UHGV virus genome: UHGV-0267725
DNA from: a virus
Strand: one strand, 5' to 3'
Length of the DNA stretch: 10,398 nt
A program made the translations under genes and the position numbers. The notes below the pieces were generated by a model, which saw nothing but the letters and a program-made list of their open reading frames with translations, was not told the origin of the DNA and did no database searches. Positions within the stretch are counted from its first letter, which is position 1, and each line of letters begins with the position of its first letter. Of this stretch, positions 3,232 to 9,720 are shown piece by piece.

Positions 3232-3531
3232 TTATAAGAAATCGGTTTCATAACTTTGCCCACCATGATAGATACCGACAATAAAGACTTTTCTGCCATC
3301 AACGGCAAAAGCAATAATCGTTCTGTGGCGGAAATGAGTTACCCGCATCCCCTGGCGAATATCATCGCGTTTATTGCCCCGATGCGGGAATGTAGAAAAC
3401 CCATCAAGATAATCAAGAAGCGCATTGGCATAATTGTCAGCAATGACGCTTCCTGCTTTCTCCGTTATGTATCTGTGCAGGTTGATTATCTGCTGTTCGG
3501 CCTCAGGAGTAATGATGACTTCATATGTCAT
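3232..3531 (-). CDS. parE: ParE-family toxin (RelE/ParE superfamily), 99 aa
   Basis: Minus-strand ATG (complement of 3529-3531) gives MTYEVIITPEAEQQIINLHRYITEK...FIVGIYHGGQSYETDFL. It starts 5 nt after the antitoxin stop. Size, position after an RHH antitoxin and the C-terminal R/H-rich region are typical of ParE toxins. The ORF-track extension to 3642 overlaps the antitoxin and is not used. Confidence 0.85.
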   Translation of the reverse strand: MTYEVIITPEAEQQIINLHRYITEKAGSVIADNYANALLDYLDGFSTFPHRGNKRDDIRQGMRVTHFRHRTIIAFAVDGRKVFIVGIYHGGQSYETDFL

Positions 3532-3536
3532 GCAGA

Positions 3537-3794
3537 TTACTTCCCGGATCGAATCGCAGCGCGAACCTGTGAAATGGAGCGTCCGTTGTTCGGGTTTTTG
3601 CGGATTGAATCCAGGGAGGGGGCGGCTGAATGCGTTAACCACGCTTCGATTGCTTTATCGCGCTCATTCAGTGCGCGAAGCCCTTCACGAATGACCTCGC
3701 TTTCTGAAGCATAGGCACCGGAAGCCACACGGGCGCGCACCATGTCAGCCATCTCGTTAGTTAATGTAATGCTGAATTGTTGGGTTGTACGCAT
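3537..3794 (-). CDS. parD: ParD-family antitoxin (ribbon-helix-helix, COG3609-like), 85 aa
   Basis: Minus-strand ATG (complement of 3792-3794) has a good SD (TGAGGT, 6-nt spacer). Translation MRTTQQFSITLTNEMADMVRARVASGAYASESEVIREGLRALNERDKAIEAWL matches the ParD/CC2985-type antitoxin pattern (SE-V-REGLR). It lies immediately upstream of the toxin. Confidence 0.85.
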   Translation of the reverse strand: MRTTQQFSITLTNEMADMVRARVASGAYASESEVIREGLRALNERDKAIEAWLTHSAAPSLDSIRKNPNNGRSISQVRAAIRSGK

Positions 3795-3829
3795 GGTAAA
3801 CCTCAAGGAGTAGGATAGAACACTATTCG

Positions 3830-3857
3830 ATGATAGCACGTTGCCTGTTGACGACAA
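3830..3857 (-). promoter_or_regulatory. Candidate sigma70 promoter for parDE
   Basis: On the minus strand, TTGTCG (complement of 3852-3857), a 16-nt spacer and TATCAT (complement of 3830-3835) lie about 35 nt upstream of the parD ATG. A + strand TTGACG (3847-3852) overlaps this, so a divergent promoter is possible. Based on sequence motif only. Confidence 0.25.
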
Positions 3858-4203: not shown

Positions 4204-5262
4204 GTGCGGGTATTACTTCGATCTGTTCCGGTACCGGAACTTGGGCTGGTGGTCCTTAAGCCTGGTCGTGAATCCATGCAGGTATTCCGCAGCGGTCGTG
4301 TACTGGTGGAGCCGGAACCGAAAAGCATGCGCGGTCTGCCGTCCGGAGTCGTTCCTGCCGTTCGCCAGCCATTGGCGGAGGATAAATCACTACTGCCATT
4401 TTTCAGCGATGAGCGGGTGATTCGTGCTGCTGGCGGCGCTGGCGCACTGTCTGACTGGCTGTTACGCCATGTTAATTCCTGCCAGTGGCCTCATGGTGAC
4501 TACCATCACAGCGAAACCGTCATACATCGTTACGGTACCGGTGCAATGGTGTTGTGCTGGCACTGCGACAACCAGCTGCGTGACCAGACTTCCGAATCAC
4601 TCGGGCAGCTTGCTCACCAAAACCTGTCAGCATGGATGATTGATGTCATCCGCCACGCAATGAATGGCGCGCAGGAGCGGGAATTATCGCTGGCTGAATT
4701 ATCCTGGTGGGCAACCATAAATAACGTAGCGGACGCACTACCGGAGACGGTATTACGTCGTTCGCTGGGATTACGCGCGGAAAAAATCCGCTCAGTATAC
4801 CGCGAAAGCGACATCATACCGGGAGAGCAGACAGCCACCAGCATACTGAAGCAGCGCACAAAAAATATTGCGCCGTTGCCTCACGCCCACCAGCAACAGA
4901 ATCCACCACAGGAAAAGACGGTGGTCAGCATTGCCGTTGATCCGGAGTCATCGGCTCAGTATCTCCAGCGCCAGAAACCACAACGGGAAGAGATGCCCGT
5001 ATACACGCGCTGGGTAAAAACGCAGAAATGCATGACGTGTGGCAATCAGGCAGATGATCCGCATCACATCATTGGTCATGGACTGGGAGGGATGGGAACA
5101 AAGGCTGATGATTTGTTTGTTATTCCGCTGTGCCGTAAATGCCATAGCGAACTACACGCCGGGGTAAAAGATTTTGAAGAAAAACACGGCAGCCAGCTGT
5201 TGTTGCTGATTCGTTTTTTAATGCACGCGAGAAATTCGGGTGTTCTGAAGTGGAAAGCATAA
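4204..5262 (+). CDS. DUF968-family phage protein with C-terminal HNH-like Cys/His motif (352 aa)
   Basis: GTG 4204 is 4 nt after GGAGG. The C-terminus has C-x2-C...HH-x14-C-x2-C-H (CMTCGNQADDPHHIIGHG...CRKCHSELH). Overall size and pattern resemble DUF968 proteins of E. coli prophages (from memory, YdfU-like). Stop TAA 5260-5262 abuts the rusA ATG. Confidence 0.85.
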   Translation: MRVLLRSVPVPELGLVVLKPGRESMQVFRSGRVLVEPEPKSMRGLPSGVVPAVRQPLAEDKSLLPFFSDERVIRAAGGAGALSDWLLRHVNSCQWPHGDYHHSETVIHRYGTGAMVLCWHCDNQLRDQTSESLGQLAHQNLSAWMIDVIRHAMNGAQERELSLAELSWWATINNVADALPETVLRRSLGLRAEKIRSVYRESDIIPGEQTATSILKQRTKNIAPLPHAHQQQNPPQEKTVVSIAVDPESSAQYLQRQKPQREEMPVYTRWVKTQKCMTCGNQADDPHHIIGHGLGGMGTKADDLFVIPLCRKCHSELHAGVKDFEEKHGSQLLLLIRFLMHARNSGVLKWKA

Positions 5263-5628
5263 ATGACTGAACGCATAGAATTTGTTTTGCCTTACCCGCC
5301 AACGGTGAACACCTACTGGCGACGTCGTGGCAGCACATATTTTGTATCAAAAGCCGGTGAGCGTTATCGCCGTGATGTGGCGCTTATTGTTCGCCAGCAG
5401 CAGTTGAAATTAAGCCTGTCCGGACGGCTGGCGATAAAGATTATTGCAGAGCCACCGGATAAACGTCGTCGTGACCTGGACAATATCCTGAAAGCACCAC
5501 TGGATGCGCTGACGCATGCCGGATTACTCATAGACGACGAGCAGTTTGATGAAATCAATATTGTGCGCGGTCAGCGCGTTCCTGGGGGGCGGCTGGGCGT
5601 GAAGATTTACAAAATTGAGAGTGAGTGA
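5263..5628 (+). CDS. rusA: RusA-family Holliday junction resolvase (121 aa)
   Basis: ATG 5263 directly follows the upstream TAA. Translation contains LPYPPTVNTYWRRRG, PDKRRRDLDNILKAPLDALTHAGLLIDDEQ and GGRLGV, matching the conserved RusA motifs, including the catalytic Asp cluster. Confidence 0.9.
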   Translation: MTERIEFVLPYPPTVNTYWRRRGSTYFVSKAGERYRRDVALIVRQQQLKLSLSGRLAIKIIAEPPDKRRRDLDNILKAPLDALTHAGLLIDDEQFDEINIVRGQRVPGGRLGVKIYKIESE

Positions 5629-6179
5629 TCGTAAATATGATATACCCGGAAATTACAGGCAAAAGCGGCGAGCATTTACGTCTAAAAACGCTGGAAGCCG
5701 TCTGGATCCAGGGGAAATTACGGATGTGGGGGCGTTGGTCGTATATAGGTGGTGGCAAAACAGGAAATATGTTCAATCAGTTGCTGGCATCCAAAAAACT
5801 GACAAAAACCGCAATCAATGAAGCCCTGCGTAGAATCAGGGAGTCAGGGATTGATAAACCAGAGCTGGAAGCATTCTTGCGAGAGATGATCGCTGGCAGA
5901 CAGAAGAGCTGGTTGTCTCACTGTACTGATGCAGAGGCGTTACGCATTGATGGGGTGATAAGTAAAGCGCTTGCACGTTATCCTGGATTGATTGATATCC
6001 TGCGGCAAAGATACGAAGGGCGGGGGATGAGTAAACGCAAAATGGCTGAATTGTTGAATGAGGTGCACCCGGAATGGTGTTTTAGTACATGCGAAAAGCG
6101 AATTGCTAATTGGTTGGCTGTTGCTGAATATGCGCTATACATCCCTATGCGAGAATCGTTTGCTCAAAAAATGTCTTGA
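5625..6179 (+). CDS. Q-position protein, putative late-gene antiterminator (184 aa from GTG 5625, or 180 aa from ATG 5637)
   Basis: The start overlaps the rusA stop (GTGA). The gene lies immediately upstream of a promoter-like element and a strong intrinsic terminator, which is the lambdoid Q/pR'/tR' position. The protein has no obvious Cys4 finger, so its family is uncertain (a non-lambda-type Q or a DUF). The functional call is positional inference only. Confidence 0.7.
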   Translation: MIVNMIYPEITGKSGEHLRLKTLEAVWIQGKLRMWGRWSYIGGGKTGNMFNQLLASKKLTKTAINEALRRIRESGIDKPELEAFLREMIAGRQKSWLSHCTDAEALRIDGVISKALARYPGLIDILRQRYEGRGMSKRKMAELLNEVHPEWCFSTCEKRIANWLAVAEYALYIPMRESFAQKMS

Positions 6180-6204
6180 TTTTTTACGCATAAACTGTTT
6201 CAAT
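6176..6204 (+). promoter_or_regulatory. Candidate late promoter (pR'-like) downstream of the Q-position gene
   Basis: TTGATT (6176-6181), a 17-nt spacer and an extended -10 TGtTTCAAT (6196-6204) would place the transcription start near 6211. That gives a transcript of about 77 nt ending at the terminator at 6262-6288. Based on sequence motif only. Confidence 0.3.
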
Positions 6205-6261
6205 CCAGCTACGCTTCGCAAAGCTATACCGCGAGGCGAATAGCAGACATGGACACCTGAA

Positions 6262-6288
6262 AGAACCCGCTTTATGCGGGTTTTTTTA
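6262..6288 (+). terminator. Rho-independent terminator (tR'-like)
   Basis: A 7-bp GC-rich stem AACCCGC (6264-6270) pairs with GCGGGTT (6276-6282) around the loop TTTAT, and the T-run continues to 6287. Confidence 0.8.
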
Positions 6289-6428
6289 TGCCTGAAAAAC
6301 GGCACAGAACATTAAACGCGCTGGTAGTTGTGAATACTGGGCTTTCAGCTTGCTGGCTTTTTGGACAAGAGTTATTGGTATGTCACGTTAACCGGAAAAG
6401 GAAAAAAGACATGCTAAAACAGTAGGAT

Positions 6429-6608
6429 ATGACCGAAACCGCCAGAGTGGTGTTTAATGAATTAAGCGTCACCGAACCGGCGACCGTCGGGGAAATTGCG
6501 CAGAATACTTACCTTTCACGCGAACGCTGCCAGTTAATACTGACTCAGCTTGTTATGGCGGGTCTGGCAGATTATCAGTTCGGTTGTTACAGACGCCTTC
6601 CGCAGTGA
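6429..6608 (+). CDS. Candidate small winged-helix protein (59 aa) upstream of the methyltransferase
   Basis: ATG 6429 to TGA 6606-6608, below the ORF-track size cutoff. Translation MTETARVVFNELSVTEPATVGEIAQNTYLSRERCQLILTQLVMAGLADYQ resembles the N-terminal wHTH of the 261-1022 protein. The SD is weak (AGGA only 1-2 nt from the ATG), so coding status is uncertain. Confidence 0.3.
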   Translation: MTETARVVFNELSVTEPATVGEIAQNTYLSRERCQLILTQLVMAGLADYQFGCYRRLPQ

Positions 6609-6758
6609 AGGCTTTTTAATTTGTGGTAATGGGCGGCTGGTGGGTGTTAGCGGCACCTGCCAGCCATCTGCTCATGCGTTGGGGTCACAAGCAAACCTCA
6701 GGCCCATCTGCTTTGCGCAAAAGCGGTATGAGCCTATCAGAGAAGTGCTTATTGATCT

Positions 6759-7808
6759 ATGGCCAATACTGTAAAAATATCCAGTTGTGAGTTAATCAAC
6801 GCTGATTGCCTGGAATTTATCCAGACCTTACCGGAAAATTCTGTCGATCTGATAGTCACAGACCCGCCATACTTTAAAGTGAAGCCCGAGGGCTGGGATA
6901 ACCAGTGGAAGGGCGACGATGATTACCTGCAATGGCTGGAGCAGTGTCTGGCGCAGTTCTGGCGGGTACTGAAGCCTGCCGGAAGTCTTTACCTGTTCTG
7001 TGGTCATCGCCTGGCATCTGACACCGAAATCATGATGCGTGAGCGCTTTAATGTGCTGAACCACATTATCTGGGCGAAGCCGTCCGGACGCTGGAACGGA
7101 TGCAACAAGGAAAGCCTGCGGGCGTATTTCCCCGCCACAGAGCGCATTCTGTTCGCGGAACATTATCAGGGGCCGTATCGTCCGAAAGATGCCGGGTATG
7201 CGGCGAAGGGCAGTGCACTGAAACAGCATGTGATGGCCCCGCTGATTGCTTACTTTCGTGATGCGCGAGCTGCCCTGGGGATAACGGCAAAACAGATTGC
7301 AGATGCCACAGGAAAGAAAAACATGGTGTCGCACTGGTTCAGTGCCAGTCAGTGGCAGCTACCGAACGAAAGCGATTATCTGAAATTACAGTCGCTGTTT
7401 GCCCGGGTGGCAGAAGAGAAACATCAGCGCGGTGAACTGGAAAAGCCCCACCACCAGCTGGTGGATACGTATACGTCACTGAACCGGCAGTATGTGGAGC
7501 TGCAGAGTGAATATAAGCATCTGCGGCGGTATTTTGGTGTGACGGCGCAGGTGCCGTACACGGATGTGTGGACACATAAACCGGTGCAGTTCTATCCCGG
7601 GAAACATCCGTGCGAAAAACCGGCAGAAATGCTGCAGCAGATAATCAGCGCAAGCAGTCGTCCGGGTGACCTGGTTGCAGATTTTTTTATGGGCTCAGGT
7701 TCAACGGTAAAAGCTGCACTGGCGCTCGGGCGTCGTGCGATTGGCGTTGAACTGGAGACCGGACGTTTTGAGCAGACAGTCAGGGAAGTTCAGGATTTAA
7801 TCGTTTGA
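6759..7808 (+). CDS. DNA amino-methyltransferase, beta class (N6-adenine or N4-cytosine), 349 aa, orphan
   Basis: Motif IV DPPY (LIVTDPPYF) lies near the N-terminus and motif I FxGxGS (DLVADFFMGSGSTVKAALALGRRAIGVE) near the C-terminus. This motif order defines the beta class. No restriction endonuclease candidate is adjacent. Confidence 0.9.
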   Translation: MANTVKISSCELINADCLEFIQTLPENSVDLIVTDPPYFKVKPEGWDNQWKGDDDYLQWLEQCLAQFWRVLKPAGSLYLFCGHRLASDTEIMMRERFNVLNHIIWAKPSGRWNGCNKESLRAYFPATERILFAEHYQGPYRPKDAGYAAKGSALKQHVMAPLIAYFRDARAALGITAKQIADATGKKNMVSHWFSASQWQLPNESDYLKLQSLFARVAEEKHQRGELEKPHHQLVDTYTSLNRQYVELQSEYKHLRRYFGVTAQVPYTDVWTHKPVQFYPGKHPCEKPAEMLQQIISASSRPGDLVADFFMGSGSTVKAALALGRRAIGVELETGRFEQTVREVQDLIV

Positions 7809-7857
7809 AACGGATGATATTGAAGAATTAATTACGCGTCGTTATTATGCGGCTCCC

Positions 7858-7933
7858 GGCCCTTTAGCTCAGTGGTGAGAGCGAGCGACTCATAATCGCC
7901 AGGTCGCTGGTTCAAATCCAGCAAGGGCCACCA
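7858..7933 (+). tRNA. ileZ: tRNA with anticodon CAU, Ile2 (lysidine) type, ileZ-like; 76 nt
   Basis: I folded the cloverleaf by hand: acceptor GGCCCTT/AAGGGCC, D-stem GCTC/GAGC, anticodon loop CTCATAA, T-arm GCTGG-TTCAAAT-CCAGC, discriminator A, encoded CCA. The sequence closely resembles E. coli tRNA-Ile2 as I recall it. Confidence 0.9.
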
Positions 7934-7934
7934 A

Positions 7935-8011
7935 CCGCCATTAGCTCATCGGGATAGAACGCCAGCCTTCGAAGCTGGTTTCGCGGGGTTCGAGTCTCCG
8001 ATGGCGGTCCA
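7935..8011 (+). tRNA. argN: tRNA-Arg, anticodon UCG, argN-like; 77 nt
   Basis: Acceptor CCGCCAT/ATGGCGG, anticodon stem CCAGC/GCTGG with loop CTTCGAA, T-arm CGGGG-TTCGAGT-CTCCG with one G-U pair, encoded CCA. The D-stem has one mismatch. Confidence 0.88.
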
Positions 8012-8024
8012 TTATCGGTATTCT

Positions 8025-8101
8025 GCGTTGTTAGCTCAGCCGGACAGAGCAATTGCCTTCTAAGCAATCGGTCACTGGTTCGAATCCAGTACAACGCACC
8101 A
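8025..8101 (+). tRNA. argO: tRNA-Arg, anticodon UCU, argO-like; 77 nt
   Basis: Acceptor GCGTTGT/ACAACGC, anticodon stem ATTGC/GCAAT with loop CTTCTAA, T-arm ACTGG-TTCGAAT-CCAGT, discriminator A, encoded CCA. Confidence 0.9.
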
Positions 8102-8270
8102 CACTTATTTTCCCTCGCTCGCTTTTGCGGACCTTTTTTGTATCCGCACCACGCCCGGCGCATACCAACCACAGAGCCTTTCGGGGGGAGCTTATGGAGT
8201 GGTCAGTGTGACTTTCTCTGTGGGCAGATCGCTCCCGGGCGTTGGCTCCCCCACCCAAAGAAACGTCACG

Positions 8271-8689
8271 ATGTTTGGTATTTTTGGTAAAAAGGCCCGC
8301 AGAGCGGCAACGGAAATTAAAAAGTTTTAAAAACGCGATCTGGCACAGGCGGTGATTAACGCCGCATACCTGGTGGCTTGTGCAGGTGGTGAGTGAGGCT
8401 TCCGATCGAACAGGTACTGCGTAATCAGCCAGCGCTGTCCGCGTTTACGTCAGAAATTAATGCGATGAGCGCAACCATTATCGGTCAGCTGGATACGAAC
8501 TTTAAAATTGGTCGTCGTGCGGCGTTACGTGAGATCGAGGATGTGAAACACGATACGCGTGAAGCGGAAGATGTGCTGGATGTGGCGGTGGCCATTGCGG
8601 AGGCAGACGGCGAAATTGAGCCGGAAGAGCGCAAGGTGCTGGAAGAGATTGCCGGTGTTCTGGGTCTTCGTATGGATAATCACCTGTGA
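8271..8689 (+). pseudogene. Decayed TerB-like (tellurite-resistance TerB family) gene; the 3' part (GTG 8393-8689, 98 aa) remains an intact ORF
   Basis: The reading is interrupted twice. ATG 8271 gives MFGIFGKKARRAATEIKKF and hits TAA at 8328-8330. The same frame continues as KRDLAQAVINAAYLVACAGGE and stops at TGA 8394-8396. A second frame, shifted relative to the first, then carries ...AEDVLDVAVAIAEADGEIEPEERKVLEEIAGVLGL to 8689. The two A-x-ADGE-type segments look like the two halves of a TerB fold split by a premature stop and a frameshift near 8390. Confidence 0.45.
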
Positions 8690-8853: not shown

Positions 8854-9068
8854 TTTTTTTGTTTACTGTTTATTAAAAACACTTCTGCATGGTGAATCCC
8901 CCTGTGCGGAGGGGCGACTGGTGTAGGTAGCATTTATTATGTTATAGGCAAGCCGACGCGGGTTCAGTGACACCGGCTGAATTCACCGGGAGGCACCCGG
9001 CACCATGCGCTGCAACAAAAGTGTTATTTCTGTTTTTCTCAAACTATCATCGTTATCCCTTTATTTCC

Positions 9069-9095
9069 GGCTGCGCATGGCGCGGCCTTTTTTTT
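9069..9095 (+). terminator. Rho-independent terminator inside the long non-coding stretch
   Basis: An 8-bp stem GGCTGCGC (9069-9076) pairs with GCGCGGCC (9080-9087) with one G-U pair, around the loop ATG, followed by 8 T (9088-9095). Confidence 0.7.
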
Positions 9096-9276
9096 ACGAC
9101 CAGCCACTGGCAGATGGTCATCCTGTGATTTGATTCCGGTTCCGGCTTTTTAACTCTGTTCCTGTACACGGGAGAAATTCGATGTCGATTAATCGTTATG
9201 ATATTGGTTACACGAAGTACCACGTATGGTGTTGAGATAAAAAGCCTGGTGCCAGAGGTAAATGCAGCAGCATCAT

Positions 9277-9325
9277 AAAAAAAGAGCCAGCGCAGAAGAG
9301 AACGGGTAAAAGAGTCTGCGCTGGC
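9277..9325 (-). terminator. Candidate minus-strand terminator / 11-bp perfect inverted repeat
   Basis: GCCAGCGCAGA (9286-9296) and TCTGCGCTGGC (9315-9325) are perfect inverted repeats separated by 18 nt. On the minus strand the hairpin is followed by TCTTTTTTT (complement of 9277-9285). The loop is long for a classic terminator, so this could instead be a protein-binding site. Confidence 0.4.
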
Positions 9326-9504
9326 GTGGGGATATTCCCCGTGGAGAAATGATATGTAACACACATCGGGAACCTTTCTATATAAACATTATCATTATTG
9401 TCAATCATAACAGTCAGGTATTATGACGTTTATGCCTCAGGGACATCAGGAATTAACTGGTGGCTTTTTATTGTTGTCAGCTTCCGGATAACGGGAGACG
9501 GGGT

Positions 9505-9720
9505 ATGGACCAGATGGAAAAAATCACAACAGGTGTGTCATACACCACTTCAGCGGTGGGGACGGGATACTGGCTACTGCAGTTGCTGGACAAAGTCTCC
9601 CCATCCCAGTGGGTGGCAATAGGTGTATTGGGTAGCCTGGTGTTTGGCCTGCTGACGTATCTGACAAACCTTTATTTCAAGATTAAAGAAGACAAGCGTA
9701 AGGCTGCACGGGGAGAGTAA
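9505..9720 (+). CDS. S: Class II holin, phage 21 S-type pinholin with dual start (71 aa antiholin from ATG 9505, 68 aa holin from ATG 9514)
   Basis: GGGAGA (9493-9498) precedes ATG 9505. Translation [71 protein letters not shown] has the Met1/Met4 dual-start motif, two transmembrane segments and a basic C-terminus. It is near-identical in pattern to S21/EssD as I recall it. Confidence 0.9.

Follow-up and report, generated by a model that had tools for sequence, protein, structure and literature searches.

Enzymes of the M.EcoGII family of N6-adenine methyltransferases are sold as chromatin-footprinting reagents. M.EcoGII and M.EcoGI, both from E. coli O104:H4 C227-11, have 333 of 349 residues in common and differ at 16 positions; M.EcoGII binds and methylates RNA, and Murray et al., who named phage 1720a-02 as bearing a very similar enzyme, suggested wholesale adenine methylation of progeny DNA as a broad anti-restriction device (PMC5778455). 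Lysogens do not express M.EcoGII, and its expression retards growth (PMC5778455, PMC12707154). Homologues of ~93% similarity appear as ‘nonspecific’ in a listing based on REBASE similarity searches (PMC6602927), and reconstructed ancestors of the clade are still non-site-specific (PMC11551740). The 10,398-nucleotide (nt) stretch of virus genome UHGV-0267725 analysed here (the window) represents late-regulatory DNA of a lambdoid prophage and encodes an enzyme of this family, preceded by a small gene and by a conserved mRNA leader that is a well-supported candidate RNA motif. Neither the leader nor the small gene is described in the M.EcoGII work (PMC5778455).

The nearest known layout is com-mom of phage Mu, in which a gene for a small protein (~62–65 amino acids, aa) and an mRNA structure at the translation start come ahead of an anti-restriction enzyme that modifies adenine and is toxic. 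Translation of mom depends on Com, a zinc finger of the Cys4 type. No sequence or fold relationship links com-mom to the window cassette. The small protein of the window differs from Com in its winged-helix-like character; a hairpin and 150 nt lie between its gene and that of the enzyme, and about half of the cassettes do without it. C proteins of Type II restriction-modification systems carry an XRE-type helix-turn-helix (HTH), act on C-box palindromes and control the endonuclease. They resemble the product of the small open reading frame (ORF) in being small proteins of DNA-binding type encoded beside a methyltransferase gene, but XRE-type HTH, C-box palindromes and endonuclease, three features of C-protein systems, are all missing in the window. 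Mom and M.EcoGII have been grouped in review as toxic when expressed and silent in lysogens (PMC12707154). As in the moron region downstream of pR′-tR′ in Shiga toxin (Stx) phages (PMC4104026), the window cassette lies between Q/tR′ and transfer RNA (tRNA), toxin and lysis genes.

The leader of the methyltransferase mRNA

The ~130 nt leader is conserved as far as the methylase start codon over its whole length, with a mean pairwise identity among 26 cassettes from many genera of 0.84, equal to that of non-synonymous codon positions, compared with 0.51–0.54 at third positions. The sense strand has a predicted folding energy of -73.7 kcal/mol (z=-3.1), while the antisense strand folds more weakly (z=-2.0). 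Of the cells in a MAFFT alignment of 54 genome copies, 92% are paired in the proposed helices (P1 to P3; Table 1), against 30–48% with slid partners, and two-sided changes occur at seven pairs. With a covariance model derived from this alignment, diverged leaders were located ahead of methylases with 58% and 56% identity; their helices are fully compensated (P1b, CGCGGG/CCCGCG; P2b, GCGAU/AUCGC or GCUCU/AGAGC). The model-fitted alignment shows compensatory change at 23 of 37 pairs (96 cells), reached by none of 500 shuffles. A structure-blind MAFFT alignment of 43 diverse copies still has 86.5% of cells paired (29–47% in slid controls) and has two-sided changes at 16 pairs (60 cells), which at most one of 500 shuffles matched. 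Many exchanges are of the U-A/U-G or G-C/G-U type, neutral in the sense RNA and mismatched on the other strand, and thus fit a sense-strand RNA and not a DNA palindrome.

The single-stranded joining regions (UCACAAGC.AACC, GGCCCAC and GAGCCUAUCAGAG) are near-invariant, beyond what the helices need, which suggests a specific partner, with ribosome, nuclease, metabolite and the methylase itself all as candidates. The small protein is a less likely partner, as the leader is unchanged where this protein is absent. An alternative helix can be drawn between the 3′ strand of P1a and CAC(A/G)(A/G)GC, the 5′ strand of P3b; it has 24 compensatory cells, against 0–8 in slid controls, and hints at a switch. 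Bases -5 to -2 (GAUC) before the methylase AUG form the 3′ strand of P3, and the start itself lacks a Shine-Dalgarno sequence (window, GCUUAUUGAUCUAUG; consensus, GCUUACUGAUCUAUG).

A total of 72 leaders, defined as covariance-model matches across IMG/VR contigs (retrieved with the leader-only pattern AACCAAGGCCC...AGCCTA), the window and two genome loci, were followed downstream, and all 72 are succeeded by an M.EcoGII-family ORF at the model-aligned ATG, with 50–85% identity to the window enzyme (the window itself, 100%). Conservation, compensatory change and this fixed position point to a structured cis-regulatory mRNA leader of generic kind. This well-supported candidate motif, linked with the M.EcoGII family in every case examined, is the new element here. 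One IMG/VR contig (L165) carries, besides a full leader, a second, partial leader-like match (8501–8593, minus strand; 28.9 bits) ~900 nt upstream of the methylase. On a Vibrio sinus plasmid (L077), a diverged leader (2194–2345) ends ~120–150 nt before methylase similarity begins; the enzyme may have an N-terminal extension there, or another small ORF may intervene. This plasmid places the leader motif outside Enterobacterales as well.

The region 6280–6800 has no match in Rfam 15 at E<=10 apart from a chance U1 match of 9 bits, the leaders of four relatives have no Rfam match either, and a literature search found no description of the leader. Identity with a known small RNA (sRNA) or riboswitch was accordingly rejected: no Rfam family matches the leader in the window or relatives, and no AgvB- or AsxR-like sequence lies in the window. 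The described prophage sRNAs AgvB, AsxR, Pas and STnc100 lie further downstream without overlapping the methylase leader, the Pas, AgvB and AsxR loci being elsewhere in the moron region. Leader peptides were also considered and rejected. The candidates, an (A/G)TG AGC upstream ORF, MGGWWVL at the start of P1 and ORFs of 55 and 74 aa, have frames broken by single-base indels, variation in the leader lacks 3-nt periodicity, and no peptide is kept in diverged leaders.

Directly 5′ of the leader, in the window and in the relatives inspected, is a further hairpin (P0), the loop of which holds the small ORF stop codon in cassettes that have this ORF. A stable fold plus T-rich tract was found at this position in 69% of 115 leader instances, compared with 15% at random positions. 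The hairpin leaves no room for a promoter immediately before the leader, and a scan found a sigma-70 promoter neither between P0/small ORF and methylase nor in the conserved block that precedes the small ORF; candidate -10 elements picked out by eye lack the final T.

Methyltransferase, small gene and mobile cassette

The 349-aa protein matches PF01555 (N6_N4_Mtase; Pfam scan, E=9e-45, residues 29–340). DPPY (motif IV; residues 35–38, nt 6861–6872) precedes F-M-G-S-G (motif I, FxGxG; residues 310–314, nt 7686–7700), which is the beta-class order, and matches to PDB sequences (M.RsrI, CcrM, M.MboIIA) fall in two blocks on either side of an insert. The best PADLOC model is MTase_II (E=4e-165). 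Identity to M.EcoGII is ~93% (325 of 350 aligned residues), a figure that is approximate because the reference, from Supplementary Table S1 of the SUPREM paper (PMC11551740), was machine-read from PDF and contains a few evident reading errors. Gaps are confined to two sites, both resembling such errors, and residues 115–280 align gap-free. Like M.EcoGII, the window enzyme is an orphan of 349 aa with beta-class motif order in a lambdoid prophage, and the two differ by about 25 substitutions. Judged by its sequence, the window enzyme is a full-length, motif-intact member of the M.EcoGII/M.EcoGI clade, and since this family is already known the assignment is, by itself, of low novelty.

Pfam and PADLOC scans of the other window ORFs identified only standard lambdoid genes and a ParDE pair, with no endonuclease, and none adjoins the gene in ~20 related loci inspected, where the flanks are antiterminator and lysis or tRNA genes. 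An earlier sequence-only reading of the window had proposed an orphan beta-class methyltransferase, with DPPY ahead of FxGxG, in a late ‘moron’ position after a tR′-like terminator and before the tRNAs, and had guessed at an M.EcoGII-type enzyme. Motifs and profile match agree with this class, the endonuclease searches with orphan status, and the Q-like gene and strong terminator upstream with the late position, while the identity to M.EcoGII bears out the guess.

Cassette enzymes of other Enterobacterales are 74–93% identical to the window enzyme, and this exact protein is absent from a collection of 15 billion proteins. The best complete E. coli genomes are 97.9% identical to the window over the methylase region, and E. 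albertii NBRC 107761 encodes a protein 98% identical to the window methylase. The region is present in 2,192 of 5,426 complete E. coli genomes (~40%), at a median of two places per genome having any, and nucleotide matches extend to many Stx2-converting phages, phiP27 and phage 1720a-02 (92% identity), the last with the same cassette of small ORF, leader and methylase.

Its pattern of variation shows the small ORF to be a real and conserved gene, with mean pairwise identities of 0.86, 0.87 and 0.54 at codon positions 1, 2 and 3 (26 cassettes). It has 260 homologues of 63–65 aa in Escherichia, Shigella, Salmonella, Klebsiella, Citrobacter, Pantoea, Cedecea and other Enterobacterales, and belongs to a family of unknown function, phrog_331 (E=1.4e-37). 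RefSeq relatives have a 65-aa gene that starts at the equivalent of 6411, with an AAGGA-type ribosome-binding site ahead of it. The window has TAG as codon 5, compared with CAG or CAA in all eight aligned relatives, and the 59-aa ORF starts three bases past the TAG, at the next ATG, an ATG kept in every allele; re-initiation there is conceivable. A 45-aa ORF (6288–6425, plus strand) is in the same frame and ends at this TAG, and some database entries annotate fused ORFs of 93–104 aa.

Every profile match of small-ORF family members is to a winged-helix family. TrmB is matched by 27 of 28 members and DprA_WH by 26 of 28, mostly below Pfam thresholds, with one allele above the DprA_WH cut-off (24.8 bits). 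A helix, RCQLILTQLVMAGL, is common to several divergent allelic types, and only two cysteines are conserved. The AlphaFold model has three helices and no confident wing; Foldseek matches are solely to winged-helix domains (Lrp, IclR, MarR and LexA proteins; E>=0.1) and, given the low model confidence (predicted local distance difference test 61), indicate fold class only. A PDB profile search with the small protein gave nothing significant. A winged-helix fold is a reasonable but not secure prediction. No HTH_3 (XRE-type) match was found in 28 plus 7 family members, even at E<=0.1. Inverted repeats in 6280–6770 are limited to the leader hairpin and one 9-nt pair 40 nt apart, and no palindromic operator lies upstream of the small ORF. 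The 59-aa ORF noted in the sequence-only reading therefore stands as a winged-helix-like, linked gene, though as the shortened form of a 63–65-aa one, while its likening to controller proteins fails for want of XRE-type HTH, endonuclease and operator; and the remainder of the 470-bp gap, which had been treated as empty, holds the conserved structured leader, the most informative element here.

Upstream of the small ORF, a non-coding block (6347–6390) is conserved from Escherichia to Klebsiella, Pantoea and Cedecea, with a mean pairwise identity of 0.71 compared with 0.36–0.41 just upstream. An inverted repeat (6354–6362/6403–6411) could pair with the ribosome-binding region of the small ORF, and the block could mask its start. 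Within the block, TGGCTTTTT (also UAUGUC) is complementary to the ribosome-binding/start region (6403–6411).

The locus is a mobile late-region cassette of lambdoid prophages, found behind four antiterminator families and ahead of lysis genes with different holins in five genera. A 347–357-aa PF01555 gene follows ~150 nt after the end of the small ORF in prophages of Salmonella, Klebsiella, Pantoea and Cedecea. Homology to cassettes behind other antiterminator types starts at about 6276, and the left edge in E. coli is the T-run of tR′. The small ORF is absent from 16 of ~47 GTDB genome loci with leader and intact methylase and from 38 of 72 loci with intact methylase in the IMG/VR set, and on inspection leaders are alike with and without it. 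Two E. coli loci have the small ORF and no methylase, one with an IS3 insertion and the other a deletion derivative.

Proposed mechanism and alternatives

The reading that we favour, and consider probable on the whole, is that the window encodes a late-expressed, Q-dependent anti-restriction methylase in a mobile cassette, with the leader restraining leaky expression. Methylase transcripts would arise only by read-through of tR′ and the second hairpin by Q-modified polymerase after induction, a model that agrees with the reported silence in lysogens and toxicity of M.EcoGII, as does the architecture of the window locus, with two terminator-like hairpins, a start lacking a Shine-Dalgarno sequence and a structured leader. 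Adenines of replicating phage DNA would then be methylated in any context, shielding progeny from many adenine-sensitive restriction systems. As P3 covers the bases 5′ of the AUG, stray read-through transcripts would be poorly translated, low leaky translation being desirable because the enzyme is toxic to the host, and through the competing helix (P1 3′ strand with P3 5′ strand) the leader may be able to adopt an open form. In this reading the small winged-helix protein would be an optional accessory of the cassette that most likely modulates expression, and not an essential controller. More tentatively, and short of what we would call probable, the leader may represent an undescribed class of cis-regulatory RNA for M.EcoGII-family methylases, switching between a closed form (P1 plus P3, AUG-side bases covered) and an open one, with S-adenosylmethionine (SAM), S-adenosylhomocysteine (SAH) or the methylase as trigger.

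Several observations weigh against this account. Compensatory changes are lacking in P3a and affect two to three pairs in P3b, and in the commonest sequence group two central mismatches interrupt the alternative helix, so that the ideas of lock and switch derive largely from geometry. In ~30% of instances P0 is followed by a weak T-tract or none, so that it is not always a credible terminator. The nonsense codon may leave the small ORF non-functional in the window. Methylation of adenine in any context by the window enzyme is extrapolated from its 93% identity to M.EcoGII, itself an approximate figure.

Two of the alternatives turn on what the small protein does. If it were a C-protein-like factor acting on intergenic DNA operators to time or repress methylase transcription, its winged-helix-like character would fit, as would its position, always immediately upstream of the methylase when present; moreover, no intact small ORF was seen away from the cassette, the two methylase-less copies being the insertion and deletion derivatives above. 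This is rather improbable, as there is no XRE/HTH_3 match, endonuclease to control or upstream palindromic operator, the palindrome-like leader helices vary via G-U intermediates, fitting RNA over a DNA operator, and the small ORF is dispensable, being lacking beside intact methylases and unchanged leaders in the genome and viral loci counted above. The same absence, with no alteration of the leader, makes it quite improbable that the small protein binds and opens the leader RNA to allow translation of the toxic enzyme, as Com does for mom. The likeness in layout (an ORF of 63–65 aa, a structured leader at a start without Shine-Dalgarno sequence, and a toxic adenine-modifying enzyme silent in lysogens) is set against two conserved cysteines and a winged-helix-like fold in place of a four-cysteine zinc finger, and a terminator-like hairpin between the two genes.

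A leader that senses a ligand, in the manner of a riboswitch (e.g. for SAM or SAH), or that is bound or methylated by the methylase for negative feedback on translation, would account for the near-invariant joining regions and the evidence for two mutually exclusive pairings, and is in keeping with linkage to the enzyme and not to the small ORF and with RNA binding and methylation by M.EcoGII (PMC5778455); it resembles no Rfam riboswitch and the alternative helix is weak in the commonest sequence group, and we regard this explanation as unlikely. That the spacer acts as DNA, as a protein-binding or recombination site at the cassette boundary, is very improbable: near-palindromes are present (GGCTGGTGGGTG/CACCCACCAGCC and GCTTTAGCGCTAAAGC) and inter-phage homology of the cassette starts just upstream, but the U-A/U-G and G-C/G-U variants would give A-C mismatches in the opposite strand, folding is better in the sense than in the antisense strand, and conservation takes in all 130 nt to the start codon. 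Finally, a sequence-specific methylase with a restriction partner outside the window is hardly credible; the best PADLOC model is labelled ‘Type II methyltransferase’, but related loci examined are flanked by antiterminator and lysis/tRNA genes, never by an endonuclease, and the enzyme to which the window protein is 93% identical has been shown to be non-specific.

Other features of the window and significance

The features on which the late-expression model draws, with neighbouring genes, are collected in Table 1.

Table 1 Features of the late region of the window and helices of the leader
Feature	Position	Strand	Evidence or details
DUF968/HNH-like gene	4204-5262		Pfam
RusA gene	5263-5628		Pfam
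Q-like late antiterminator gene, 184 aa	5625-6179	+	Pfam DUF1133 E=1.7e-103, Phage_antitermQ E=1.9e-6; RefSeq relatives named ‘DUF1133 family protein’
tR′-like intrinsic terminator	6258-6288	+	13-bp hairpin then U7; -18.2 kcal/mol, z=-6.2
Conserved non-coding block in 5′ region of small ORF	6347-6390	+	CTTGCTG...AGAGTTAT..GTATGTCA
Small winged-helix-like gene (phrog_331)	6411-6608	+	Normal 65-codon frame, TAG at 6423-6425; shortened 59-aa ORF 6429-6608
P0, GC-rich hairpin and T-rich tract, terminator-like	6595-6622	+	Terminator scan; -8.9 kcal/mol; overlaps small ORF stop codon
Conserved structured leader of methylase mRNA (candidate motif)	6627-6758	+	Conservation, fold, compensatory changes
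P1 hairpin	6629-6675		AUGGGC-GGCUGG-GGGUG with CACCC-CCAGCC-GCUCAU
P2 helix, inside P3	6701-6734		GGCCCAC-GCUUU with AAAGC-GUGAGCC
P3 helix	6683-6686, 6690-6692 with 6747-6749, 6754-6757		GGUC..AGC with GCU..GAUC; ends one base before AUG
M.EcoGII-family beta-class N6-adenine methyltransferase gene, 349 aa, intact	6759-7808	+	PF01555, identity to M.EcoGII
tRNA cluster (CAU anticodon, Arg-UCG, Arg-UCU)	7858-8101	+	ARAGORN, Rfam tRNA, RefSeq annotation of relatives
P21-type holin gene	9460-9720		Pfam/PADLOC scans of window ORFs

The first tRNA (7820–7933 region, plus strand) is called Met by ARAGORN and tRNA-Ile (ileZ-like) in RefSeq relatives. A promoter scan identified TTGAAG-17-TATTAT at 7820–7848 as the sole sigma-70-like site in 5500–8500, and its location just 5′ of the tRNAs suggests that these may have their own promoter.

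IsrK of Gifsy-1 is a short RNA downstream of AntQ; part of the transcription passes its terminator and enters the genes beyond (PMC4825925). A weak IsrK-like Rfam match in the window (6213–6286, plus strand; 21.6 bits, E=0.34) occupies the same position just after the Q-like gene and ends at the terminator. The 45-aa ORF that directly follows this match recalls ‘orf45’ of the Gifsy-1 locus.

Further downstream, a TerB-like gene seems to be split (8269–8330 and 8393–8689, plus strand) into a 19-codon ATG-started part ending at TAA and a GTG-started 98-aa ORF covering positions 63–109 of the 118-position TerB profile, and is probably a pseudogene. A strong match to the prophage sRNA STnc100 lies at 8861–9041 (plus strand; 117.6 bits, E=7e-26). 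According to a 2026 preprint, STnc100 is related to PasD, and RusA, TerB and DUF1627 genes are the usual neighbours of PasA/PasC; all three genes are in the window and a PasA-like gene may lie near 9050–9400. A weak Esr41-like match (9275–9365, minus strand; 28 bits, E=0.057) is found upstream of the holin gene. In the prophage early region, a ParE-toxin/ParD-antitoxin pair is encoded on the opposite strand (3232–3857, minus).

The enzyme itself adds little, as one more allele of a known family. The leader is a concrete, testable candidate for control of the methylase, found with the gene in all cases examined, from Escherichia to Vibrio-like relatives; it is a candidate for entry into Rfam as a new RNA motif and might serve to keep toxic genes under tight control. 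A switching leader, if real, would account for the ability of phages to harbour an enzyme whose leakage is lethal. For phrog_331, the family of the small winged-helix gene, the methylase is now a defined genetic partner.

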